Below are positions 11,801 through 54,726 of a stretch of DNA of 64,000 nt, piece by piece. The notes under the pieces were generated by a model. It ran no database searches. It had not been told where the DNA came from and was given only the letters and a program-made list of their open reading frames with translations. Position 1 is the first letter of the stretch. The number at the start of each line of letters is the position of its first letter. The stretch lies in NCBI GenBank assembly GCA_964405835.1, contig CAYOPN010000003.1, forward strand, positions 29,273 through 93,272. The letters run 5' to 3'. The position numbers and the translations under genes are program-made. This DNA comes from an uncultured Elusimicrobia bacterium. Lineage in GTDB: Bacteria; Elusimicrobiota; Elusimicrobia; F11.

Positions 11801-11883
11801 GCCGGCGTGGCGGAATGGCAGACGCGTCAGACTCAAAATCTGATACTCGCAAGGGTGTGTAGGTTCAAGTCCTATCGCCGGTA
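11801..11883 (+). tRNA. tRNA-Leu (anticodon CAA), long variable arm, CCA not encoded
   Basis: Acceptor GCCGGCG/CGCCGGT; D-stem GCG/CGC; anticodon stem TCAGA/TCTGA with loop CTCAAAA (CAA); long variable arm TACTCGCAAGGGTGTG; T-arm GTAGG-TTCAAGT-CCTAT; discriminator A. Confidence 0.7.
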
Positions 11884-11949
11884 CTCTTAGCCCTCCTTAG
11901 TGCAATCCCGAAGTAAGCAAAAGCAGCGCCACTCTTTTGCTTAATTTGT

Positions 11950-15891: not shown

Positions 15892-18800
15892 ATGCAGGAC
15901 CGAGGCAGATACATGCGAAAGACAATTTTCACGCTGATTTTTCCGTCACTTTTGGCGCCTGCCGTCGCGATGGCGCTCGACTGCGCCAATCCGGCACAGT
16001 TTATCGGCCACGGTCCGGATCCTTTCATTCCCTACGTCGCTTATCCCGGCTACGTCGCGCCCGGCCAATCGTTGATTGAATCCATCCAAGACGGCCCATG
16101 GGAATCGCCCGCCACGTGGGCAGGCAATATTGTCCCGTCCCCCAATAACGTTGTCATCATCAAGCACCGCGTCACCCTCAACTCCACCGTTCGCGTCGCC
16201 GATACCGCGGTCATTTCCACTGGCAAACTGACTTTCAATTCGACCCTTGATACGCGACTTGAACTGGGGACGCTTCAAGTGGTGTGCGGACAGCTCGAAA
16301 TCGGCACCGAAAACGCTCCGGTCGAAAGCAACCGCAAAGCCGAAATAGTTTTTCTCGATATTCCAATTAATACCACGCGCGACCCCGGCCAATACAACAA
16401 CGGCCTGGTCGTGATAGATGGCAAGGTGACGATCCATGGCGCACCGAAGATGGACACATTCCTTCGCCTGGCGGCCGAAGCGCCGGCGGGCGCCTCCATG
16501 GTGACGCTTGAAAACCCAACGACCGGGTGGAAACCGGGCGACCTGCTCATGTTTCACGATACGCGCCAATATACGAACACGACGCGGCCGGACATCCCCG
16601 AGGCGGATCACACCGTTCAAAGCGAAGTAATCCCCATCGCATCCATTTCCGGCGATGGCCGCAGCGTTACTTTGGCATCGTCACTGCAATATGCTCACAA
16701 GGGCGCCCGCGACGGAGATGACGTATTAATCTTTCGCCCCTGGGTCGGCAATCTGACGCGCAATGTCAACATCCGCTCGGCCAATCCCAATGGCACGCGC
16801 GGGCATATGTTGTTTATGCACCGCAGCCAAATCGACATTCGCTACGCTCAAATGTTTGAACTCGGCCGAACCAAAACGGATCCGCTCAACAACACCCTGT
16901 TCACTCCTTCCGGAAGTCCAACTCAGATCGGAACCAATCAGATCGGCCGCTACTCCGCGCATTTTCATCATGTTGCCGGTCCGCTTTCCACACCGGCCAA
17001 CGGCTATCAGTTCACCTTTCAAGGGAACTCGGTGTTTTCACTATTGGAAACCACCTCTTTTAAGTGGGGCATAGCTCTTCACAACAGCCATTTCGGTCTC
17101 ATCAAGGACAACGTTGTTTATAACTGGTCCGGCGCGGGCATTGTGGCAGAAGACGGCAATGAAACCGCTAACATGGTTGCTCACAATTTTGTGAATCGCC
17201 TGACCTACACGGGCACAGGCGAAGATTCGCGTAGCCGTGAGGACGTCGGCCATACAGGAGCTCCTTTTTGGTTTCGTGGCCCGAACAACATCATCCGCGA
17301 TAATGTGGCCAGCGGCGGGACCGGCGGATTCGCGATTGTTGTGGGAGCGATGGCCAATCCAACGACGCGTATCCCATTGGGACCTGGTTCAGACACAGCG
17401 GAGGCGGGTCAATACACGATGAAAGACATGATGGCCATCGCCATTCGCGAATTTGCACGCAACGAAGTCGCTGGGGCCACCATCATGGGATCGACCATCT
17501 GGAATGTCGGATCCCGGAACAATGTCACACCCGTAAATGAGATAGAAGAATCGGTCATCAAAGATTTCCGCGTGTGGCACGTTAGCTCGTATGTGTACTA
17601 CAACTATAAGACGAACCGTGTTACTTTTGATGGGGCGGTCTGCCTAGGTGACTTTCAAACCTTGAGAAACCTTACATCCGCCGCCGGCGCGTTTTTCTTC
17701 AGCGACTATGTCTCGTTCAATTTCAAAATCATCAACTCGAACATTCAAGGATTTTTGAATGGCATTTTAATCGGGCCCGTCGGTGACCAGACCATTGAAA
17801 ATACGTATATGCGTAATTACATCTCTATCATTAAGGTCCCAACATGGATGGCCAGTGGCGCGCCCGCTCCAGAACTACCGCCGCGCACCGTTACGCTGAA
17901 AAATGTGCGGTTTGTACCGACCGGAACGCCGTCACGCAACGACTGGGGAACACAGGCATTTATCCGATTGACCGGCATACCCCATGCGCGCGCGACCAAC
18001 TTGATTCAACGCGATCGCTTGTTTGTTTACAACCACAACGGCGTCGTGGGAGATAATTTCCGCGGATTTACTCCGGAACAAAAATTTGACGCGATCATGC
18101 CCAAGACACAAGTGCGCCAAGATGGCTGGATCGAGCTCCTCGCTTCTCCAGATGAAGGTTTGACCAATCAACAGAACCGCGATCTTCACGGCATCATGAC
18201 CGCGGGTGAAATTGCGCCGTGCCATGACACGCGCACCGGTATCATTGGATTTGTTTGTCCAATGGTAAACGATGCCACTCCGCCTTCAATACCACAAGGG
18301 CTTCAGGCGACCGTGGTCAGCGACAACCGGATCAATTTGACCTGGTCTGCCTCCAACGATCCGGAGTCCGATGTTGCCCAGTACAACATTTACAGGAATG
18401 GAGTCTTTATCCGGGAAACGCCCTCGACGAATTTTTCCGATACCGGTCTCAGAGAAGCGACGCAGTACCAATACGAAGTTTCAGCCGTAAATCTGGCGGA
18501 CATCGAATCGCCGAAAAGCGCACCCGCCTCCGCCACGACCCTTGTGGACAACACTCCTCCTCAACTCATGTCCGTGTTCGCCGCGGGAAATCCAAATTTC
18601 GTGAACGCGGTCTTCAACGAACCGGTCAATGAGGCCAGTGCGGAAAGCGTTTTAAATTACGTCATCAACCTCGGCGTGACAGTCCAGGCAGCGGTGCTTC
18701 AAGCCGACCTGAAAACAGTTGCTCTGACTGTTTCGGGTTTACTGGAAAATATTCAGTACCTGCTCACGGTCAATAACGTCACGGACCGTTCGCTTGCTGG

Positions 18801-44901: not shown

Positions 44902-47900
44902 ATGGCAACACAGATACCGGGCGTAGAACGTGTCTCATTGAATGGCGCAACCCACCTTGATGACGACAGTCTCGTCCGTTACATCAACTTAAAACTGGCC
45001 GCCCTCGGCCAACCGACGTTCGGGACTACCAACGACCCTGGATTTGTCGAATTCGCCACGCCGTTCCTGCGGAACCATCAAGAGAAAAACCGGCTGCTGC
45101 TTAATTACGCGCCACCGGTCGACCGGCGCATCCAAGATTTCCTGAACGACATGCTGAAAGATATTTCCCCGGCCGTGACCATCAAATTGCCCAATGCTTT
45201 TATCCTGGACCGACCCGGCCTCGCCCGCACGATGTCACTTCCGCCGGACCGTGATATTTTCCAATCTGACATTGTCGAGACCTACCGTGTGAAACAGGGC
45301 GTCTTGCACAATCCCAAACACGATCGCCGCACCACCCAAGGCGTGTTCCATGTTGCCGAAGGCGGCCTGCCAATTCCCGAAGACAAACTGGCCGTTCCCA
45401 AAGCGACGTTTGCCAGGCTATTGCAAGCAGCCCTGCGTCCGCCGCGAGAACTTCTGCAGCTTCCGTTCACAGCCAGCCAAGAGAAGAAGGCAGAATTGTT
45501 TGTGTCGCTTCTTATGCGGCCACTCGTTTGTCCGTCCGCCGGAGCTGGCACCAAAGAAAAACGGATGGAAATTCGTTTCTTCGCGCCGGGCAACCTGGTC
45601 GGCAACCTGGATTTCGTTGAAATGATTTTTGGGAACGCGGGAGACCCGTTCCTGCCCGAAAACGATGCAGCGTTGGAAGTGGATGGATGGACCGGACACA
45701 CCGGCTGCGTTATTCTCGCGCCGCACCTGATCACGTTAACGAAAAAAGAAATGGGCCTTCCTTCCTATGACAAAGCCAACGAGCGCCAACGCCGCGACAG
45801 TATGTGCTGGAAGAAAGAAGACGAACTCTACAACAACGGCTCCGCCTTCAAGGTAACCTGCCGCGACGCGCGCGGCGTGATGGTCACCGTGATCGCCGAC
45901 AACTATTTCGGTTACTGCAAAAAAGAAGTGAAGACCCAGATCAGTTTTTCCGCCAACCTGTTTGGGCTCTGCGAGGAAGAACATTCGGGTGGCGCAGTCG
46001 CTTATCCAAGCTACATTCTCGGCCGCGATTTCTACGCGAACACCGCTTTCTCACAAAACAAGCGTGTGTTTGCCGACGCCATGGCGCTATTAAAAGACAA
46101 CGTCGAAATAAAACCGGACGGTTTCGCGGTTGATAAAAATCATCCAAGCATCCTCTACTTCCCTGAAAATACGCAATTCAATGTGCGTCAGCGCAGCATC
46201 AATTGGGAACATAACAAGGTCGCCAAGAAACGGAAGTTACTGGCGAACGAAACCTACGTTCTGCCTTCCGGATACAAAGTTCATCTGGAGCGTCAGATTG
46301 GAGGCCCCGCGTGGCGCCTAATTGGCACCGTTGCCGAGGGAACCCTCTGCCACAAACCCTGTACGGTGTCGGGCGGTGGAAAGTCGGAAATCTCCAAATC
46401 CATCTCTTACTCCATGTTACAGGGGCCGGTTTTTGTGAAGGATTTTCACAAGGATTTTGACGAGCTCGCGCAAATCCTGAAAAAGGATTTCACGCATCGC
46501 TTTAAAACACCGCCTCCGGATTACAAACACCGGCCCATCCTGAGCCCCGAACGCTCGCTGGGCTCCGTGGTCAAACTTTTTACGCCGTCACCAGAATTTA
46601 CCGATGAATATAACGCGTGGCTGGTGTCCTTGCCGCAAACTATCCGCCAACTTGTGTTCGTGGTCAAACGTTATTACAAGCCGGAGTGGGGCGATGACTG
46701 GCGCGAACATTTCAGCGTCGACCGAATTAACGGTTTTCTTGGCCACGAATTAAAATACGGCGACCAGCGCCTCATCGCAAATTATCTGCGTGTCGGCCAC
46801 GATAGGGACGGATCTTGGCGCATTTTCAAAGTCCGACCGGACTTCAACCCAGCTGAGAAAGTCCAGGTGGAAGACGATATCACGGCTTCCATCGTTGTGC
46901 CGCGCGAGGCGTTGAACGATCTATATCCCGCGGACGACAACAACAGCGTAAAGCTCGTGACCAACTGCGAATCGGTCTTGTTCCAGCGGCCCGATGACGC
47001 GAAACTTCGCGGCTATGACAAACAAGCCGAGGCCGATCTGTCCGAACCCGAGACGTTCCTTTCGAACTGGCAACCACTCAACCGCGGCGATGTCGTTGAT
47101 TTGGTTGAAAACATCGTCGACTTCGACGACTACAGCGAACCAATGAAAAAATTGTTGCTGGGATTCCTGCAGGACAACAAACCCAAATACGCGGTGTCCT
47201 CCGCGCACGCGCGCCTCGTTGATGGAAAAAGATCAAAAAATCCCCGCTATCTACAGAAGCGCCCCGACCGCGTGAACGCGCGCGCCACTTATTTGGCCGA
47301 GGTCGGCATCCGCTTGTCCCGCGGCATTCCGGTCGACCGGACAGTGCATTACCCGGTGAATTCGGTGCTCGCCGGCCGTCGCAACAACCCGCCCGACAAA
47401 GAAGCGGGGTTGCCGGCGCTCGCGGTCTACAATCCGATCCATTACCAGGAATTACCGGAGCTCTTCATGGACTTTGTGTCGAGCTTGACCGGCAAGTCCC
47501 CCTCAACGACAGGCTTTGGCTCCGAAGGCGCCCTGACGAAAGGGCCATTTAACGCGCTTTGGCCGGTCGTTGATTTGAACAACGCGCTGCTCTCCTTTAT
47601 TTTGACCGGTTACGACGGTTTCACAACGGCCGCCGGCCATGTGGGCCCTTACATTGAAGTTGAACACGACATCAGCATGTTGATCCCAGAAATTTGGTCG
47701 CGCATGAAAGTGTCCGAACGGAAACCCGACTTCATGTTCAAGAACGGTTTCTTGGAGCCGCTCGCGGACTTCGAGCACAAAGGAAAGAAAGTGCTCGCGA
47801 GCCGACTGGGCTCCCGCATCACCAACCGTTTCGTCGACCTCTTTTTGGGCCGGTTGTTTGAAAACCCGAACCTGGTTTTCTCGGAAGACATGCTCAAACC

Positions 47901-48360
47901 CGAGAAACAGGACCTGGACATGTTCGTGGAAGGCGTGAACGAGATCGTCGCAACGCAGAAACGTGTGGCTGAAAATTATTTCAAAGACGGCAGCGTGGAC
48001 GCCGCCTGCCCTCCGCTAAAAGCGGTGCTGCACATCATGGCGAAGGGAAATTACGAAGGAAAGGATTCCAAACATCCGGACGTCCGCAAACTCTTTGACC
48101 GTGAGACCGTGCTGAAGAGCGATTGGTACAAAGAACGCCTCGCCACCAAACAGAAACGGGACATTGATCTATGGAACAAACACATTTCCTACATTGACGA
48201 ATTCAACAAACGCCCCGGCAACGTTGAGACCGTGGCCACGCTAAACCTGGAAACCCGTTTAGAAACCGCCAAAACAAAACTGGCGGAAGTGAAGAACGCG
48301 TCCTACCTAAAGACCCTGATCGGCACGCTTGGCGCCGACCCGTTCCACATACAGACCTAA
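44902..48360 (+). CDS. Large (1152 aa) cytoplasmic protein of unknown function; size compatible with PPi-dependent PEP carboxykinase family (speculative)
   Basis: Uninterrupted 3.46-kb ORF; no signal peptide; no motifs I recognise with certainty. Confidence 0.5.
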   Translation: MATQIPGVERVSLNGATHLDDDSLVRYINLKLAALGQPTFGTTNDPGFVEFATPFLRNHQEKNRLLLNYAPPVDRRIQDFLNDMLKDISPAVTIKLPNAFILDRPGLARTMSLPPDRDIFQSDIVETYRVKQGVLHNPKHDRRTTQGVFHVAEGGLPIPEDKLAVPKATFARLLQAALRPPRELLQLPFTASQEKKAELFVSLLMRPLVCPSAGAGTKEKRMEIRFFAPGNLVGNLDFVEMIFGNAGDPFLPENDAALEVDGWTGHTGCVILAPHLITLTKKEMGLPSYDKANERQRRDSMCWKKEDELYNNGSAFKVTCRDARGVMVTVIADNYFGYCKKEVKTQISFSANLFGLCEEEHSGGAVAYPSYILGRDFYANTAFSQNKRVFADAMALLKDNVEIKPDGFAVDKNHPSILYFPENTQFNVRQRSINWEHNKVAKKRKLLANETYVLPSGYKVHLERQIGGPAWRLIGTVAEGTLCHKPCTVSGGGKSEISKSISYSMLQGPVFVKDFHKDFDELAQILKKDFTHRFKTPPPDYKHRPILSPERSLGSVVKLFTPSPEFTDEYNAWLVSLPQTIRQLVFVVKRYYKPEWGDDWREHFSVDRINGFLGHELKYGDQRLIANYLRVGHDRDGSWRIFKVRPDFNPAEKVQVEDDITASIVVPREALNDLYPADDNNSVKLVTNCESVLFQRPDDAKLRGYDKQAEADLSEPETFLSNWQPLNRGDVVDLVENIVDFDDYSEPMKKLLLGFLQDNKPKYAVSSAHARLVDGKRSKNPRYLQKRPDRVNARATYLAEVGIRLSRGIPVDRTVHYPVNSVLAGRRNNPPDKEAGLPALAVYNPIHYQELPELFMDFVSSLTGKSPSTTGFGSEGALTKGPFNALWPVVDLNNALLSFILTGYDGFTTAAGHVGPYIEVEHDISMLIPEIWSRMKVSERKPDFMFKNGFLEPLADFEHKGKKVLASRLGSRITNRFVDLFLGRLFENPNLVFSEDMLKPEKQDLDMFVEGVNEIVATQKRVAENYFKDGSVDAACPPLKAVLHIMAKGNYEGKDSKHPDVRKLFDRETVLKSDWYKERLATKQKRDIDLWNKHISYIDEFNKRPGNVETVATLNLETRLETAKTKLAEVKNASYLKTLIGTLGADPFHIQT

Positions 48361-49140
48361 AAGAATCAGCGCACCGCCCGCGAGCGACAGCAGCGACGGC
48401 ACTTCCTTGAGCCACAGCCATCCGATCAACGTGGCGACCACCGGAATCAAATAAAGAAACATTACCGCGCGGGACGCCGGCATCCGCTTGATCACGCTGG
48501 CCCACAGCACAAACGTGATCGCGCCGGGGAACACGCCGAGATAGACGGTCGACCAGGTCGCTTCGGCTGAGGCGGCGCGAAACGCGGCCGGAAGGCCCGA
48601 TGCAAATGGCAGCAGCATCAGCGTGCCGAACCAGATGATGTAGCAGTTGAAATTAATGGAATCGTAGTTGCCGATAAGTTTTTTTTGGATCGTCGTGTAT
48701 ATGCTGCCGCAAAGCGCCGACAACAACACGAAACCCACGTAGCTGTTTATTTGAAACCCGCCGCCTTCCCCAAAAGCGATGACGCCAGCGCCCGCGAAAC
48801 TCAAGGTCACGCCGACCCAAGCGCCAAACGAAAATTTTTCTTTCAGGAAAATACCTGCCCAGATGATCGCCCAGATCGGCAGCGTGCTCAAAATCAAGCT
48901 TGCCGCGCTTGCGGTCACGTTCTTCTCTCCGATGTTCAAACAAACGTGGTAGCCGGGAATGCTGAAGAACGCGGCAATGATCAATAGCGGCACATCGGTT
49001 TTGCGCGGAAGGCGGAAACCACGGACAAGCACCAGTGGCACCAGCGCAAGGGAAGCGACCGAGAAACGGAAGACCGCCATGGTGATGGGGTCGTAACCGT
49101 GGAGCGCCGCGCGGATGGCTGGGAAGGCAGAACCCCACAA
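48307..49140 (-). CDS. EamA/DMT-family transporter
   Basis: 10-TM pattern with duplicated EamA-like halves. Confidence 0.75.
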   Translation of the reverse strand: MWGSAFPAIRAALHGYDPITMAVFRFSVASLALVPLVLVRGFRLPRKTDVPLLIIAAFFSIPGYHVCLNIGEKNVTASAASLILSTLPIWAIIWAGIFLKEKFSFGAWVGVTLSFAGAGVIAFGEGGGFQINSYVGFVLLSALCGSIYTTIQKKLIGNYDSINFNCYIIWFGTLMLLPFASGLPAAFRAASAEATWSTVYLGVFPGAITFVLWASVIKRMPASRAVMFLYLIPVVATLIGWLWLKEVPSLLSLAGGALILLGLYVERVGAKRADQGL

Positions 49141-49172: not shown

Positions 49173-50210
49173 TCAGAGCGGGAAGACCTGAAACGCGGTG
49201 ATGCCGATGAAGACTTCGCGGCCCACTTCAAAACCGCTGGCGAGCACGATACCTTTGGGCACGTGCGCAATGATGTGTTTCTCGGCGCCCAGGTCGAGCA
49301 AGAGCTCAATTTGTGGACCGCGGAAGCGGGTCTTGATGATTTTTCCTTTCACTTGCAGCGTCTCCGGCACGGAGCTCACGTACACATCGTGTGGCCGGAA
49401 ATAAATGCGCACGCGCTGTCCGACCTTGTGGCCGGTCACCGTGAACCGAAACGGACCCCACGTCACCAACTCCGGCCCCGTCACTTCGGATTCAATGAAG
49501 TTGGATTCCCCCACAAACTCGGCGACAAACTGGGTCGACGGCTTGTCGAAAATTTCGAGCGGCGTGCCTTCCTGTTCGACCCGGCCGTGGTTCATCACGA
49601 GCACCTTACTCGCGATCTCGAGCGCCTCGTGCTGGTCGTGCGTCACGAAAATTGTGGTCACGTGCATCTGCTCGTGCAGGCGGACGATCCATTCGCGCAG
49701 TTCGTCGCGCACCTTCGCATCTAACGCGCCAAACGGTTCGTCCAACAAAAGCACTTTCGGGTCCGGCGCGAGCGCGCGCGCGAGCGCGACGCGTTGACGC
49801 TGCCCGCCCGACAATTGTGACGGGAACCGGTGCCCCAGACCGTCGAGCGAGACCAAACCCAGCAATTCGCTCACACGCTCGTCCCGTTCTTTTTTGGAGA
49901 CATTGCGGACCAACAAACCGAACGCAATGTTCTCGGCGACCGTCATGTGGCGGAAAAGCGCGTAGTGCTGAAACACAAACCCGATGTTGCGATCGCGCGC
50001 CGATTGGGCCGATGATTCCTGGCCGATGATCTGGATTTCACCCGAATCGGGGATCTCAAGCCCCGCGATCATGCGGAGCAGCGTGCTTTTTCCGGAACCG
50101 CTCGGCCCCAAGAGCGCCACCAAAGAGCCGCCGTCAACCGCGAAACTGACATTGTCCACCGCCGCCAGCTTCCCAAAGCGCTTGTTTAAATTTTTTACCG
50201 CAATACTCAT
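49173..50210 (-). CDS. cysA: Sulfate/thiosulfate (or molybdate-type) ABC importer ATP-binding protein with C-terminal TOBE domain
   Basis: Walker A GPSGSGKST; LSGGQRQRVALARAL; LLLDEPFGALD; C-terminal TOBE-like ...VRIYFRPHDV. Confidence 0.85.
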   Translation of the reverse strand: MSIAVKNLNKRFGKLAAVDNVSFAVDGGSLVALLGPSGSGKSTLLRMIAGLEIPDSGEIQIIGQESSAQSARDRNIGFVFQHYALFRHMTVAENIAFGLLVRNVSKKERDERVSELLGLVSLDGLGHRFPSQLSGGQRQRVALARALAPDPKVLLLDEPFGALDAKVRDELREWIVRLHEQMHVTTIFVTHDQHEALEIASKVLVMNHGRVEQEGTPLEIFDKPSTQFVAEFVGESNFIESEVTGPELVTWGPFRFTVTGHKVGQRVRIYFRPHDVYVSSVPETLQVKGKIIKTRFRGPQIELLLDLGAEKHIIAHVPKGIVLASGFEVGREVFIGITAFQVFPL

Positions 50211-51088
50211 AACTCCTCCGTCTTCGATTCCTGCCTGGTCCTTGATTCCACGATGGCCTTCGCGACCAGCGTCACCACTGACAACAATGCCAGCAACGAT
50301 GCCACCGCGAACGCGCCGGCGAAATTGTATTCGTTGTAAAGAATTTCAACGTGCAATGGGATCGTGTTCGTCATGCCGCGGATGTGCCCTGACACGACCG
50401 AGACCGCGCCGAATTCGCCCATCGCGCGTGCGTTGCACAAGATCACGCCGTAGAGCAGCCCCCACTTGATGTTCGGCAGCGTCACTTTTTTAAAAATTTG
50501 CCAGCCGTTGGCGCCGAGCACCCACGCGGCCAACTCCTCATCGGGCCCCTGTGCTTGCATGAGCGGGATCAGCTCGCGCGCAACGAACGGGAACGTCACG
50601 AACCACGTGGCCAGCACAATCCCCGGCGTTGCAAAAATAATTTTGAACCCGTGGTCGATGAACCAGGGCCCGAAAAACCCATGCAGCCCGAACATCAACA
50701 CAAAAATCATGCCGGAGATGACCGGCGAAACCGAAAATGGCAAATCAATCAACGTGATCAAGAGCGCCTTGCCGCGGAAATTGAACCGCGCGATGGCCCA
50801 CGACGCCGCCAATCCGAAAATCACATTCAGCGGCAGCACGATCGCGGTCACAATGATGGTGAGTTTGATGGCCGACCACGACATCGGGTCGGCAATCGCC
50901 TGCCAGTACAACTCCACCCCTTTCTTCAATCCTTCGTAAAAAACGGCGACGAGCGGCAAGAATAAAAAGAGCGCGAGAAATACGAGCGCGACCGTGATGA
51001 GCAGCACGCGCACGGGGCGCGACTCACTCATCCCATGCGTCGGGAAACCGCCGGTCTTGGTCTGGAGTCTCGAGATCGCGCCGGCCAT
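50207..51088 (-). CDS. cysW: Sulfate ABC transporter permease
   Basis: CysW-like permease with EAA-type loop. Start taken at the Met one nt after the cysT stop (TAATATG); ATGA overlap with cysA. Confidence 0.75.
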   Translation of the reverse strand: MAGAISRLQTKTGGFPTHGMSESRPVRVLLITVALVFLALFLFLPLVAVFYEGLKKGVELYWQAIADPMSWSAIKLTIIVTAIVLPLNVIFGLAASWAIARFNFRGKALLITLIDLPFSVSPVISGMIFVLMFGLHGFFGPWFIDHGFKIIFATPGIVLATWFVTFPFVARELIPLMQAQGPDEELAAWVLGANGWQIFKKVTLPNIKWGLLYGVILCNARAMGEFGAVSVVSGHIRGMTNTIPLHVEILYNEYNFAGAFAVASLLALLSVVTLVAKAIVESRTRQESKTEEL

Positions 51089-51089
51089 A

Positions 51090-51929
51090 TTAGATGGCCC
51101 CCTGGCGACGGCGGCTCCACCACTGGATGACATTGATCATAAGGATCAGCACAAACGCCATGACGAGCATCACCACCGCGATGGCGGCCGCGCCCGCGTA
51201 ATCAAATTGCTCAAGCTTGGTCATGATCAAAAGCGGCGTGATCTCGGTCTTAAGGGGCATGTTGCCCGAAATAAAAACGACCGAGCCGTATTCGCCGAGG
51301 GCACGCGCGAACGCGAGCGTGAAACCGGTGACGATGGATGGGAATATCACGGGAAAAACGGCCCAACGGATGGTTTGCCACCGCGAAGCGCCTAGCGTCG
51401 CCGCCGCTTCTTCCATGTCGCGGTCCATGTCTTCGAGCACGGGTTGGACGGTGCGCACAACAAACGGTAATCCGATGAACGTCATCGCGAGCAGGATGCC
51501 AAGCGGCGTGTAAGCGACCTTGATGCCGATTTTCTCGAGCGGCGCGCCGATCCAGCCGTTCTGAGAATACAGCGTGGTAAGCGTGATGCCGGCGACCGCG
51601 GTGGGAAGCGCAAAAGGAAGGTCCACGATGCCATCGATGATTTTTTTACCGGGGAACGAGTAACGCACGAGCACCCAGGCCACAATCACGCCGAAAAAGG
51701 CGTTGATGAGCGCGGCTATGAGGGAGGTGGAGAATGTGAGCTTAAGGGAAGCAAGCACGCGCGGGGAGGTAACGACATCAAGGAATTCTTTCCAACTCAA
51801 GTCCGCTGCCCGGAAAAACAGCGTGGAAAGCGGGAGCAACACGACCAGCGTCAACAATAGCAGGGTCAACCCCATGCTGAGGCCGAAGCCGGGTAACACG
51901 CTCCGTTCTTTTTTAAACAGTGAAAACAT
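51090..51929 (-). CDS. cysT: Sulfate ABC transporter permease
   Basis: CysT/CysU-like permease; AAGGAG RBS 6 nt upstream of ATG. Confidence 0.75.
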   Translation of the reverse strand: MFSLFKKERSVLPGFGLSMGLTLLLLTLVVLLPLSTLFFRAADLSWKEFLDVVTSPRVLASLKLTFSTSLIAALINAFFGVIVAWVLVRYSFPGKKIIDGIVDLPFALPTAVAGITLTTLYSQNGWIGAPLEKIGIKVAYTPLGILLAMTFIGLPFVVRTVQPVLEDMDRDMEEAAATLGASRWQTIRWAVFPVIFPSIVTGFTLAFARALGEYGSVVFISGNMPLKTEITPLLIMTKLEQFDYAGAAAIAVVMLVMAFVLILMINVIQWWSRRRQGAI

Positions 51930-51938
51930 TTTTCTCCT

Positions 51939-51982
51939 TAAAAATAAAAATCCCGTGCCAACTTTTTCAAAGCTGACACGGG
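51939..51982 (-). terminator. Intrinsic-terminator-like hairpin plus U-tract in the cysTWA leader, abutting the RBS
   Basis: Minus strand: CCCGUGUCAGC-UUUGAAAAA-GUUGGCACGGG (11-bp stem, 2 G.U) then AUUUUUAUUUUUAAGGAGAAAAAUG. Confidence 0.45.
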
Positions 51983-52117
51983 TTTCGAAAAACGTTTTCC
52001 GTAACTGCGCCGCTTTAGCCCTGTTTTTGTCCGGTCGGGCAAGTTGGTATTAAATTCCACCGTGCTAGCGCGCGAACAGTAATAATTTTTTTTGAAAATG
52101 TCATCATCTGCTTCTTC

Positions 52118-52867
52118 ATGAGCAACCAGACCTTCATCGCATTTGACCACGCCGGCGTGGTCCGCGGATCAAAACACCTGGTGTTGTGGGCAGCGATGCT
52201 GTTAATGACGCCGGTGCTGGGGACCGCCGTTGATATGGAACAATTGAAGGCCGAGGTATCGGTCTCGCCGGGCCGCCTTGCCGAACAACTCAACGTGGAA
52301 ATCCGCCCGGCCACAGACCAATTGCCTCCCCATTTGCGGTACTCATTCGACGACGACAAATTGTCCGATCAAATAAATCACCGCGAACGCCAGTTGTTGA
52401 TCATTCCCATCGATGCTTACCGCGCGCAGTACAACAAACGGGAAATGAAGGCCTTCGACAAGCGTTTGTTCGGACTTAAACAGGTGATTTACCGCAACAT
52501 CGGCGAATACGTCGGCCAGATCCCAATTTTCCCTGTGATAAATGCGCGGCAGGCCTTTCATGCCGCGATCGCTCAATTGGGATTTGACGGCGGGGGCGGG
52601 GTGCGTTTCATTACGCGGTATGGAAAGGAAGGAAGCATCAGCACCAACAAAAACATTTTTTACACATTCCAAGGCGTGACCAGAAACGGCAAAGCGCTGG
52701 TCTGCCTGTTCTATCCGATTGCGGTCCGCAACTTACCTCTGACCGCAGAAGACAGCACGTGCGCCATGTACATCGACCAGCAAACACCCGAGCGCTTCAC
52801 ACCGCACCTGCACGACCTGGACAAGATTGTCCAAGCCATTCAGATAAAACAAGAAAAGAAACGCTAG
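52118..52867 (+). CDS. Hypothetical protein with N-terminal TM/signal segment
   Basis: HLVLWAAMLLMTPVLGTAV hydrophobic segment; no recognised motif. Confidence 0.35.
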   Translation: MSNQTFIAFDHAGVVRGSKHLVLWAAMLLMTPVLGTAVDMEQLKAEVSVSPGRLAEQLNVEIRPATDQLPPHLRYSFDDDKLSDQINHRERQLLIIPIDAYRAQYNKREMKAFDKRLFGLKQVIYRNIGEYVGQIPIFPVINARQAFHAAIAQLGFDGGGGVRFITRYGKEGSISTNKNIFYTFQGVTRNGKALVCLFYPIAVRNLPLTAEDSTCAMYIDQQTPERFTPHLHDLDKIVQAIQIKQEKKR

Positions 52868-53568
52868 GCCGCCATCTCCCAGACCAGCACTTCCGCGCCT
52901 GATTTTTCGTCGGCCGTGAGTTTCGGCGCGCCGGCCGCGGTCAACCGCACCGCGTCACCTTGCGCCAGTTTTCCCGCGCCTTCCAACGTAGCCGATCCTT
53001 TCGCGATGAACACATGCGCGTAGCGCGCATCGGGGACCTTCACCGACTCACCGGCTTTTAAACGCCCACCCCAAAGCACGGCGCCTTTTTGACGAATGGA
53101 GATGGCCGCGTTGTGGTTGCGACCGGACGCAATCGGCACGAGGCCGCCTTTGTCCATCTCCTTATTAATATCCAGCTGTTCGTAACTGGGGTTAATGGAC
53201 TCCTTATCCGGGAGCACCCACATCTGGACCAGGTGCACAGGGTTGTCGCCGCTCGGGTTCATTTCGGAATGCCAAATACCGCGGCCTGCGCTCATGCGCT
53301 GCGCGAGACCGGGATAAATAATCCCTTTATTCCCCACCGAGTCCTTGTGTTCAAGCTCACCCGAGAGCACCCAGGTAACGATCTCCATGTCCTGATGCGG
53401 GTGCGTCGAGAAACCGGAACCCGGGTGGATCACGTCGTCGTTGTTGACGAGCAATAACCCGTGGTTTGTGTTATCGGCATCATAATGTTGACCAAAGCTG
53501 AAGCTGTGATACGAATCCAGCCAACCGATGTTGGTCTTAAACCTCTCGTTTGCGCGTTTAATGTCCAT
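52864..53568 (-). CDS. Pirin-family (cupin) protein
   Basis: GFSTHPHQDMEIVTWVLSGELEHKDSVGN...MSAGRGIWHSEMN matches the pirin metal-binding block. Confidence 0.85.
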   Translation of the reverse strand: MDIKRANERFKTNIGWLDSYHSFSFGQHYDADNTNHGLLLVNNDDVIHPGSGFSTHPHQDMEIVTWVLSGELEHKDSVGNKGIIYPGLAQRMSAGRGIWHSEMNPSGDNPVHLVQMWVLPDKESINPSYEQLDINKEMDKGGLVPIASGRNHNAAISIRQKGAVLWGGRLKAGESVKVPDARYAHVFIAKGSATLEGAGKLAQGDAVRLTAAGAPKLTADEKSGAEVLVWEMAA

Positions 53569-54726
53569 TTATATCTCCATGAGCAGCCTTTGCATGTCTC
53601 TATCGGAAACGAAGCGCCGGGTGTCGGCGAATATTTTGAATTTCCGGAAGAACGTCTCAAAATTCTCTTGTGACATTCTATAACCGAGTTGGCGGATTTT
53701 AGTTTCCAGGGCCCTTCGTCCGCTACGGTTGGTGAGCGGCAAGGAAGTTCCCGGCGCGCCCACGTCTTCGGCACGCATGATCTCATAGGTGGAGCGATTT
53801 TTCAGCATGCCGTCTTGATGGATGCCCGATCCGTGCGAGAACGCGTTTCCGCCAACGACCGCCTTGTTGGCCGGCACGGCCATGTTCATGGCGCGCGCCA
53901 CCATTTGACTGGTCGCATAGAGTTCCGGCGTGTTCACGGTGGTGCGCCGACCGAAGAAGTCCGCGCGGGTCTTGAGCGCCATAACGACCTCCTCCAGAGA
54001 ACAGTTGCCGGCCCTCTCTCCCACGCCGTTTACGGTGCAATCGATTTGTTCCACTCCCGCCCGCACCGCAGCCAACGAATTGGCGACCGCCATGCCCAGA
54101 TCGTCATGGCAATGGACGGACAACCGCGCGTGACAGATATTCCGAACATTGGTTTGCAGATAACGGATGAGCCCCACGAATTCATCGGGCGTCGCGTAAC
54201 CGACCGTATCGGCCACGTTGATCGTGGTTGCGCCCGCGTCGATGACCGCCTCGACCATTTGCGCCAAGTAGGCGCGGTCCGCGCGTGAGGCGTCTTCCGG
54301 CGTGAATTGAACGTCGGCGACAAACGATTTGGCGAACGCCACGCCTTTCACGGCCTGTTCCAACGCTTCGTCACGCGATTTGCGGAGTTTGTGTTCCAGG
54401 TGGATGTCAGAAGAAGCAATGAATACGTGGATCCGCCGGCGGTGCGCGGGTTCGATCGCCTGCCAACAGGCCTCGATGTCTTTGTCCACACAGCGCCCAA
54501 ACGCGGTGATGACCGGCGCGTTCTCAGCGCGCCCCACCGTTTCGGCGATTTTGCGGACCGCGCCCAACTCGGCCGGCGATGAGACCGGGAACCCGGCCTC
54601 GATGGCGTCGACTCCCAGTTTGTGCAATTGCTTCGCGATCGCGAGCTTCTGCTCCGGCCTCAAATGACAACCCGGCGCCTGCTCCCCATCTCTTAACGTT
54701 GTGTCCGATACGAATACCTTCTCCAT
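53569..54726 (-). CDS. 2-isopropylmalate/homocitrate/citramalate synthase family enzyme (HMGL-like, short form without LeuA regulatory domain)
   Basis: TTLRDGEQAPG...; HCHDDLGMAVANSLAAVRAGV...; DCTVNGVGERAGN. Confidence 0.8.
   Translation of the reverse strand: MEKVFVSDTTLRDGEQAPGCHLRPEQKLAIAKQLHKLGVDAIEAGFPVSSPAELGAVRKIAETVGRAENAPVITAFGRCVDKDIEACWQAIEPAHRRRIHVFIASSDIHLEHKLRKSRDEALEQAVKGVAFAKSFVADVQFTPEDASRADRAYLAQMVEAVIDAGATTINVADTVGYATPDEFVGLIRYLQTNVRNICHARLSVHCHDDLGMAVANSLAAVRAGVEQIDCTVNGVGERAGNCSLEEVVMALKTRADFFGRRTTVNTPELYATSQMVARAMNMAVPANKAVVGGNAFSHGSGIHQDGMLKNRSTYEIMRAEDVGAPGTSLPLTNRSGRRALETKIRQLGYRMSQENFETFFRKFKIFADTRRFVSDRDMQRLLMEI

Follow-up and report, generated by a model that had tools for sequence, protein, structure and literature searches.

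The SAM-I riboswitch (S-box, RF00162) is an OFF switch that acts through a terminator and an antiterminator ahead of sulfur and methionine genes, and many copies occur per genome. In proteobacteria, cysPTWA, sbp, ssu and tau are controlled by the LysR-type proteins CysB and Cbl, which act on DNA. Two further S-adenosylmethionine (SAM) riboswitches, SAM-V (Rfam RF01826; metY and bhmT leaders of marine bacteria; crystal structure PDB 6FZ0) and SAM-II (RF00521; metX; PDB 2QWY), have binding cores that superimpose at 0.37 A (PMC6061858). The subject here is the leader of cysT, the first gene of a cysTWA operon on the minus strand of a 64-kb stretch of DNA (the window; contig CAYOPN010000003.1, positions 29,273 to 93,272) from an uncultured Elusimicrobia bacterium. 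Sequence comparison identifies a hairpin in this leader as the terminator, that is the expression platform, of a probable riboswitch family absent from Rfam 15. We regard it as reasonably probable that the family consists of SAM-sensing OFF riboswitches of the SAM-II/V fold that act by termination, a reading in which the ligand, the triplex, the direction of switching and the transcription start are predictions.

The cysT leader hairpin and its conserved RNA

A first-pass annotation had described an 11-bp stem with a 9-nucleotide (nt) loop, followed by a U-run and a Shine-Dalgarno (SD) sequence, immediately before cysT, and had suggested that it was an attenuator or riboswitch expression platform within the operon's own 5' leader. 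The hairpin was recovered as described (51982-51952, -22.1 kcal/mol on the cysT-sense strand). Its stem has 11 pairs including two G-U, or 14 if pairs within the loop are used, and none of 200 dinucleotide shuffles was as stable (z = -5.57); on the opposite strand the stability drops to -12.4 kcal/mol (z = -2.35). A G+C-rich stem-loop followed by a U-run on the transcript, it has the form of an intrinsic terminator. Three terminator-like sites occur in the 1.1-kb region, with 1.7 +/- 1.2 expected, a count that is not significant by itself; the significance lies in the strength and conservation of the cysT-leader hairpin rather than in the number of such sites. In L001, the closest relative (related loci are given as L numbers), two stem changes, G-C to G-U and U-G to C-G, preserve pairing in the cysT-sense RNA only, and the loop is UUUC. 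Placement in the operon's own leader is borne out by the divergent upstream gene and by a structured RNA and a promoter-like site (52104-52076) upstream of the hairpin, and the conserved structured RNA directly before it also supports the idea of a riboswitch platform. The elements of the leader are as follows.

52099..52104, minus: promoter-like -35 box ATGACA, placed by family geometry
52076..52081, minus: promoter-like -10 box TACTGT, placed by family-wide geometry
52004..52071, minus: aptamer (covariance-model match), with a core of ~55 nt at 52062-52010
52059..52062, minus: P1 5' strand CGGU, pairing with ACCG at 52035-52032
52050..52058, minus: putative third (triplex) strand GGAAUUUAA; its UUU (52054-52052) corresponds to SAM-V U8-U10
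52037..52047, minus: P2 descending strand CCAACUUGCCC; its UUG (52042-52040) corresponds to SAM-V U19 U20 G21
52032..52035, minus: P1 3' strand ACCG
52022..52031, minus: A-rich joiner GACAAAAACA, in the place of the family's P3 and GAACA and of SAM-V A40-A42
52010..52021, minus: P2 ascending strand GGGCUAAAGCGG, also the switching sequence; its U52017 and A52016-52014 are the counterparts of U47 and A48-A50, the ligand contacts of SAM-V
51986..52001, minus: small linker hairpin CGGAAA-ACGU-UUUUCG, present in all predicted leader folds
51952..51982, minus: intrinsic terminator hairpin (whole)
51982-51972, minus: terminator 5' arm CCCGUGUCAGC
51968..51979, minus: antiterminator partner GUGUCAGCUUUG, made of terminator 5' arm and part of the loop, which can pair with UAAAGCGGCGC (52017-52007)
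51971-51963, minus: terminator loop UUUGAAAAA
51962-51952, minus: terminator 3' arm GUUGGCACGGG
51950-51940, minus: U-run UUUUUAUUUUU, with one A between it and the 3' arm
51939-51934, minus: SD sequence AAGGAG, just after the U-run and before the cysT AUG at 51929

The RNA recurs. Conservation between the window and L001 extends over some 120 nt ahead of cysT and takes in GAAUUUAAU, ACCAACUUGCCC, GGGCUAAAGCGGCG, the hairpin and its U-run. The same blocks stand twice in tandem ahead of sbp-cysT in L002, ahead of a secreted-protein gene, sbp and cysTW in L004, and ahead of metY-metX-metW in L026 and L030. A degenerate pattern covering all seven first copies, for which ~1 chance match was expected, matched 90 metagenome stretches, many carrying 2-4 copies, and 111 distinct copies were obtained. 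Covariance model R1, made from 98 copies with the window and L001 excluded and with P2 left out of its structure, gave 213 hits on the metagenome contigs. It matches the window leader at 52071-52004 (minus strand; 34.6 bits, E = 1.8e-7), its sole significant hit in the 64 kb, and scores L001 at 38 bits. Among 80 cysT loci (1.45 Mb, many phyla) the model hits the five Elusimicrobia loci and no others, and all genomic copies of the RNA sit in Elusimicrobia metagenome-assembled genomes (MAGs). Rfam 15 has no match to the leader, and at gathering score the RNA is unmatched in the window, in five genome loci and in 146 kb of motif-rich contigs; searches of the literature by phylum, topic, sequence and new SAM classes found no description of it.

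The leader RNA is a conserved family with an H-type pseudoknot supported by covariation. Its strands follow one another as ACGGC / GAGG[C/A]UUUAA / nnn / YCCAACUUGCCCC / G / GCCGU / P3 / GAACA / GGGnGCUAAAGCGG, and the pseudoknot is of the H type because the 5' strand of P2 sits within P1. P1 varies as ACGGU/ACCGU, ACGGC/GCCGU, UCGGC/GCCGA and a shortened ACGC/GCGU, with double-sided changes at four of five pairs in alignment A2 and at all five in alignment A4; between the window and L001 a U-A pair of P1 is replaced by C-G. In P2, GCCCC pairs with GGGnGC, where the bulge n takes all four bases. Compensation is found here as well: GCUCC meets GnGAGC or GGAGC in 17 of 18 cases, GCCUC meets GAGGC in four of four, and the single copy carrying GGGCC has GGCUC. 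P3, between the two helices, is a hairpin free in sequence and length, with abundant covariation; it is missing from the window copy and likewise from L084, L142 and L169. Pairing holds in 92% of the cells of the model-based alignment, and for 12 of its 18 pairs both sides vary; slid controls on that alignment give 30-60%, and none of 500 shuffles reaches any of the measures. A Watson-Crick helix GCUUUA/UAAAGC ('P4') was rejected as the main reading because U-to-G and C-to-A variants in its 5' block are never compensated, and because comparison with SAM-V explains the block as a parallel third strand.

Two departures from the simple unit were seen. Tandem arrays of two or three full aptamer and terminator units precede a single gene in L106:8155-8541 (minus), L116, L146 and L002:2839-3061, each copy having its own terminator, and contig Ga0326728_10000427 (L093, L155) holds at least nine copies. 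In a subclass the 'turn' accommodates insertions, one or two hairpins (~30-55 nt) separating the third strand GGCUUUAAUUGG from the descending strand of P2 (L139:3228-3375 (minus), L100:4045-4180, L085:215-330, L091:868-1000 (minus) and L137:2180-2308; 37-46 bits with the model).

Expression platform and predicted promoter

A hairpin of -9 kcal/mol or better with a T-run follows the aptamer in 103 of the 111 copies, after a linker of 15-49 nt that usually holds a small hairpin. The 5' arms of these terminators are unusually conserved (...CCGCUUU), most of them reading CCCGAUCCGC, and they are complementary to the aptamer's invariant AAAGCGG. The duplex between arm and aptamer averages -7.6 kcal/mol, as against -4.8 for shuffled arms. 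Terminators of the motif pair with GCUAAAGCGG at -8.3 kcal/mol compared with -5.6 for other terminators on the same contigs, and CCGC is present in 86% of the former and 22% of the latter (p = 1.7e-11). For the window, the minimum-energy fold of the nascent transcript pairs UAAAGCGGCGC with GUGUCAGCUUUG and so removes 8 bases from the 11-base 5' arm of the terminator. The leader thus combines a structured aptamer with a terminator that is predicted to compete with an aptamer pairing, the two attributes of a transcription-terminating riboswitch.

Transcription probably starts near 52069, in which case both aptamer and hairpin would lie in the leader. The promoter pattern used, TTGACA (at most one mismatch)-N16-18-TAnnnT ending 9-14 nt before P1, is found in 34 of 80 non-tandem copies (42%) and in 1.1% of shuffles. 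The promoter-like site of the window, ATGACA-N17-TACTGT at 52104-52076, has the modal 11-nt spacing.

The first-pass annotation had also stressed that the terminator is fused to the ribosome-binding site. This is true of the window copy and is not general: about 95 nt lie between terminator and SD in L001. There, a ~90-nt insertion (L001:1160-1248) contains the palindromic element CAUUCCCGCGAAGGCGGGAAUCC ... CCCCCGCCUUCGCGGGGG, which resembles a small repeat or a miniature inverted-repeat transposable element. In the window (51920-52001, minus strand), GGAAAACGUUUUUCG can pair with GGAGAAAAAUGUUUUC, comprising SD and start codon, around the terminator, and could add translational repression; we do not claim this helix because it is made of A/U runs and is missing in L001. 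Leader-peptide attenuation was also rejected: a 34-codon open reading frame (ORF) extends from 52119 to a UAA in GGGCUAAAG, and its frame is destroyed by indels in L001.

Proposed ligand pocket, regulon and alternatives

In SAM-V, whose metY sequence is AGGC / GCAUUUG / AAC / UGUAUUGUAC / GCCU / P3 / AAA / GUACUAAAAAA, U47 pairs with the SAM adenine and the triples A48:U20.U9 and A49:U19.U10 flank the sulfonium; A50 touches the aminoacyl part, and C46:G21.A7 also belongs to the pocket. The new family has U, AA:UU.UU, A and C:G.[C/A] in register with these residues, nearly invariant in 164 copies, and the third-strand UUU is nearly invariant in the same copies. An A-rich strand has two U-rich strands complementary to it, an indirect hint of a major-groove triple helix. 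UUUAU co-occurs with CCUACUU; this linked change is not Watson-Crick and therefore suggests a tertiary contact. UUUGA is linked in a similar non-Watson-Crick way to CCAAAUU, a further indirect hint of the triplex, and these rare UUUGA...CAAAUUG variants restore SAM-V's own G11/A18 combination. Given the SAM-II/V strand order and pocket sequence in the leader RNA, the ligand is most likely S-adenosylmethionine, and the cell would most likely shut off sulfur uptake when S-adenosylmethionine is plentiful.

The following mechanism may be proposed. Transcription would start near 52069, and 52062-52010 would fold into an H-type pseudoknot made of P1 (CGGU/ACCG) and a long irregular P2 (CCAACUUGCCC/GGGCUAAAGCGG), with the U-rich GGAAUUUAA placed in the groove of P2. 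With ligand bound, GCUAAAGCGG would be held in P2, the terminator would form and transcription would halt in the U-run before the cysT SD. When ligand is absent, UAAAGCGGCGC would pair with GUGUCAGCUUUG, the terminator would be blocked and cysTWA would be transcribed.

The genes associated with the motif are, to judge from their annotation, a regulon for sulfate and sulfonate uptake and for sulfur and methionine metabolism. Most common downstream is a secreted protein of 430-520 amino acids (25 distinct; loci include L094:9852-11405 (minus), L004:7510-8847 and 23 others). It matches no Pfam or NCBIfam model and its similarity to the ExtI porin is only 22 bits, so the label 'porin-like' is tentative; it may serve as a sulfate channel in the outer membrane, given its place ahead of sbp-cysTW in L004. 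MetY follows the motif in about 12-13 cases, with MetX and MetW in L026, and MetY proteins from the metagenome contigs are 72-90% identical to MetY of an Elusimicrobia MAG. Other downstream products are Sbp, CysT, cystathionine beta-synthase (CBS), NMT1-type binding proteins, ABC ATPases, a hexapeptide-repeat transferase, 1-Cys peroxiredoxin, DsrE-like proteins, nitroreductase, an FAD flavoprotein, ExbB and an Rrf2 regulator. Small and medium proteins (about 110-150, 90-120 and 261 amino acids) with no Pfam or NCBIfam match recur directly behind the motif (L158:569-1027 (minus), L105:8744-9175, L104:1845-2210 (minus), L084:7720-8502 (minus)), and this position suggests a link to sulfur metabolism.

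Several observations weigh against a SAM switch, and some of them favour a different ligand. The same RNA and termination mechanism might serve to sense another sulfur metabolite, such as S-adenosylhomocysteine (SAH), methionine or homocysteine, cysteine, adenosine 5'-phosphosulfate (APS) or 3'-phosphoadenosine 5'-phosphosulfate (PAPS); we consider this unlikely, though it is the strongest contender. The regulon, mostly sulfate and sulfonate uptake together with 1-Cys peroxiredoxin, nitroreductase and DsrE-like proteins, looks like a sulfur-starvation set, and no metK-like gene is among the downstream genes surveyed. In one MAG, L004, where the new motif stands ahead of the operon for sulfate uptake, thrC (16491-17768, threonine synthase; TIGR00260, 306 bits) is preceded by a canonical SAM-I riboswitch (L004:16175-16314, plus strand; 67.8 bits) that has a terminator of its own, so that a second SAM sensor is not strictly needed there. 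Several pocket-adjacent positions are unlike SAM-V: A7 is replaced mostly by C, G11 by A, A18 by C and A51 by G, and the lower part of P2 is a G-C-rich, bulged GCCCC:GGGnGC where SAM-V has UAC:GUA. Rfam 15 models of SAM-II, SAM-V and other SAM riboswitches have no match at E <= 10 in stretches of 91-400 nt that covered the window leader, L002, L004 and a 91-nt canonical copy; because the covariance models fail to match, the RNA should not be filed under RF00521 or RF01826. A family-wide nascent-fold test of the antiterminator returned 87%, with similar values in scrambled controls; since scrambled G-rich tails pair with the C-rich arm equally often, the test is not used as evidence, and the same-contig terminator comparison took its place. 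The window promoter is a consensus match only, and a generic scan found no site upstream of the aptamer. The window copy is also a low-scoring minimal variant of the family, and copies of the family are mutually related by descent, so the statistics overstate their independence and are supportive rather than decisive. What speaks against another ligand is that every residue listed for SAM-V as touching SAM or as part of the two U:A.U triples recurs here as the same base, almost without variation, and that MetY-MetX-MetW operons are classic SAM-II/V targets. Two SAM riboswitch classes within one genome are, moreover, known from Pelagibacter, which has SAM-II and SAM-V. That a SAM-II/V-type scaffold has been re-tuned in Elusimicrobia to a non-SAM metabolite of sulfur status (SAH, homocysteine or methionine, or adenylated sulfate) seems to us quite unlikely; were it true, this would be the first riboswitch that reports inorganic-sulfur supply, and the master regulator of a regulon like that of sulfate starvation.

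Control of the terminator by a protein, tRNA or small RNA bound to the leader appears improbable. Conserved unpaired blocks could equally be the binding site of a macromolecule, and an Rrf2-type regulator is among the downstream genes. However, a pseudoknot with a near-invariant junction, tandem full units and a broad metabolic regulon are typical of metabolite riboswitches; the contact-by-contact match to the SAM pocket would be a coincidence, and T-box and ribosomal-leader models do not match the leader RNA. We find it highly improbable that the hairpin is no regulatory RNA at all and represents a bidirectional terminator, a DNA operator or a promoter overlap (TTGAAA-18-TATTTT; sigma-54-like TGGCAC). 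A sigma-70-like consensus match does lie inside the hairpin and T-run, and the 3' arm contains TGGCAC. Yet this match is the only one returned by the generic scan, within the chance expectation of 0.5 +/- 0.7, and the loop and arm bases that form the boxes are not conserved, for which reason sigma-54 and sigma-70 promoters and an operator were rejected. The bidirectional terminator raised in the first-pass annotation fails because the G-U pairs, which lend the stem far more stability in the sense RNA, and the wobble-preserving changes in L001 keep pairing on the cysT-sense strand only; in addition, no convergent plus-strand gene ends at the hairpin, and the hairpin regularly accompanies the aptamer.

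The cysTWA operon and relation to known systems

The operon consists, as the first-pass annotation had it, of two permeases and an ATPase with a TOBE domain:

51090..51929, minus: cysT, sulfate ATP-binding cassette (ABC) permease, predicted first regulated gene (TIGR02139, 418 bits; cut-off 246)
50207..51133, minus: cysW (TIGR02140, 402 bits; cut-off 329)
49173..50210, minus: cysA, ATPase with TOBE domain (TIGR00968, 366 bits; cut-off 343; Pfam ABC_tran and TOBE_2)

As listed, the cysW ORF shares 44 nt with cysT; since the CysW family match starts only at residue 41, translation probably begins downstream of the listed start. The substrate had been left open between sulfate or thiosulfate and molybdate or tungstate. 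That doubt can be dropped, since all three proteins score above the curated NCBIfam sulfate cut-offs, sbp is in the same operon in relatives and the regulon is one of sulfur; molybdate and tungstate models stay below their cut-offs for the transporter proteins of the window. By these scores and the regulon, the substrate of CysTWA is taken to be sulfate or thiosulfate. A substrate-binding protein is indeed absent from the vicinity: no Sbp or CysP adjoins cysTWA, tblastn found no homologs of Sbp, the porin-like protein or MetY anywhere in the 64 kb, and cysT of L001 likewise has no neighbouring sbp. In the relatives L002, L004 and L030, sbp adjoins cys genes. As sbp belongs to the riboswitch-controlled operon of relatives, the genome is predicted to hold an orphan sbp elsewhere, equipped with a separate copy of the RNA. 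The framing of the operon as a departure from proteobacterial control by CysB does not hold, because it is Elusimicrobia MAGs that hold the closest CysT relatives (83%, 75% and 68% identity) and every genomic copy of the RNA.

The divergent neighbour (52118-52867, plus strand) encodes a conserved hypothetical protein with homologs at 36-55% identity; L001 has a different one, an ABC ATPase gene. Further upstream, a gene at 53569-54726 (minus) encodes a 385-residue protein like 2-isopropylmalate synthase that matches only the first ~380 of ~515 LeuA model positions and so would have no C-terminal regulatory domain; a pirin-family gene (52864-53568) comes after it. On the other side, an EamA transporter gene (48307-49140, minus) downstream of cysA is convergent with a 1152-residue ORF without Pfam match (44902-48360, plus). 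A tRNA-Leu(CAA) at 11801-11884 (plus) is the sole RNA of the window recognised by Rfam and ARAGORN.

If confirmed, the family would be the third sequence family for the SAM-II/SAM-V fold and the first of that fold, in this survey, that mainly terminates transcription and is commonly tandem. Its targets would form the first riboswitch regulon for acquiring sulfur to be described from the Elusimicrobiota, a phylum that has received little study. The family would show that a ligand pocket can persist while its surroundings, including the detectable sequence signature, change. Rfam-based annotation currently misses hundreds of copies in metagenomes from peat, soil and groundwater, and a model for the family would improve the annotation of sulfur metabolism, including the secreted porin-like protein and small proteins of unknown function.

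Among known systems SAM-V comes closest. The two RNAs share the strand order of P1, third strand, turn, P2 descending, P1 descending, optional P3, A-rich joiner and P2 ascending; a P1 of 4-5 bp; a position upstream of metY; and a core that reads AUUU / UUG / CUAAA in SAM-V and [C/A]UUU / CUUG / GCUAAAG in the new family. The family departs from SAM-V in having an additional conserved GAGG on the 5' side of the U-run and two C:G pairs that close the top of P2. Its platform consists of an intrinsic terminator and a predicted antiterminator, whereas SAM-V occludes the SD (at the 3' end in 86%), a mode of translational control that is not found in the family. It is also often tandem, is hosted by Elusimicrobia and has a regulon that includes sulfate uptake. 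SAM-II lacks P3, as does the window copy, but usually has a P1 of 6 bp and a P2 of 4 bp, and its peripheral sequences and platform are unlike those of the family. With SAM-I the likeness is in regulatory logic; the four-way-junction fold of SAM-I is unrelated, and its model does not match the motif studied here. The CysB/Cbl systems share the target set of sulfate and sulfonate uptake and an LsfA-like 1-Cys peroxiredoxin, LsfA being a 1-Cys peroxiredoxin known as a sulfate-starvation protein; there, however, the regulators are proteins acting on DNA, and here a leader RNA in another phylum would do the work.

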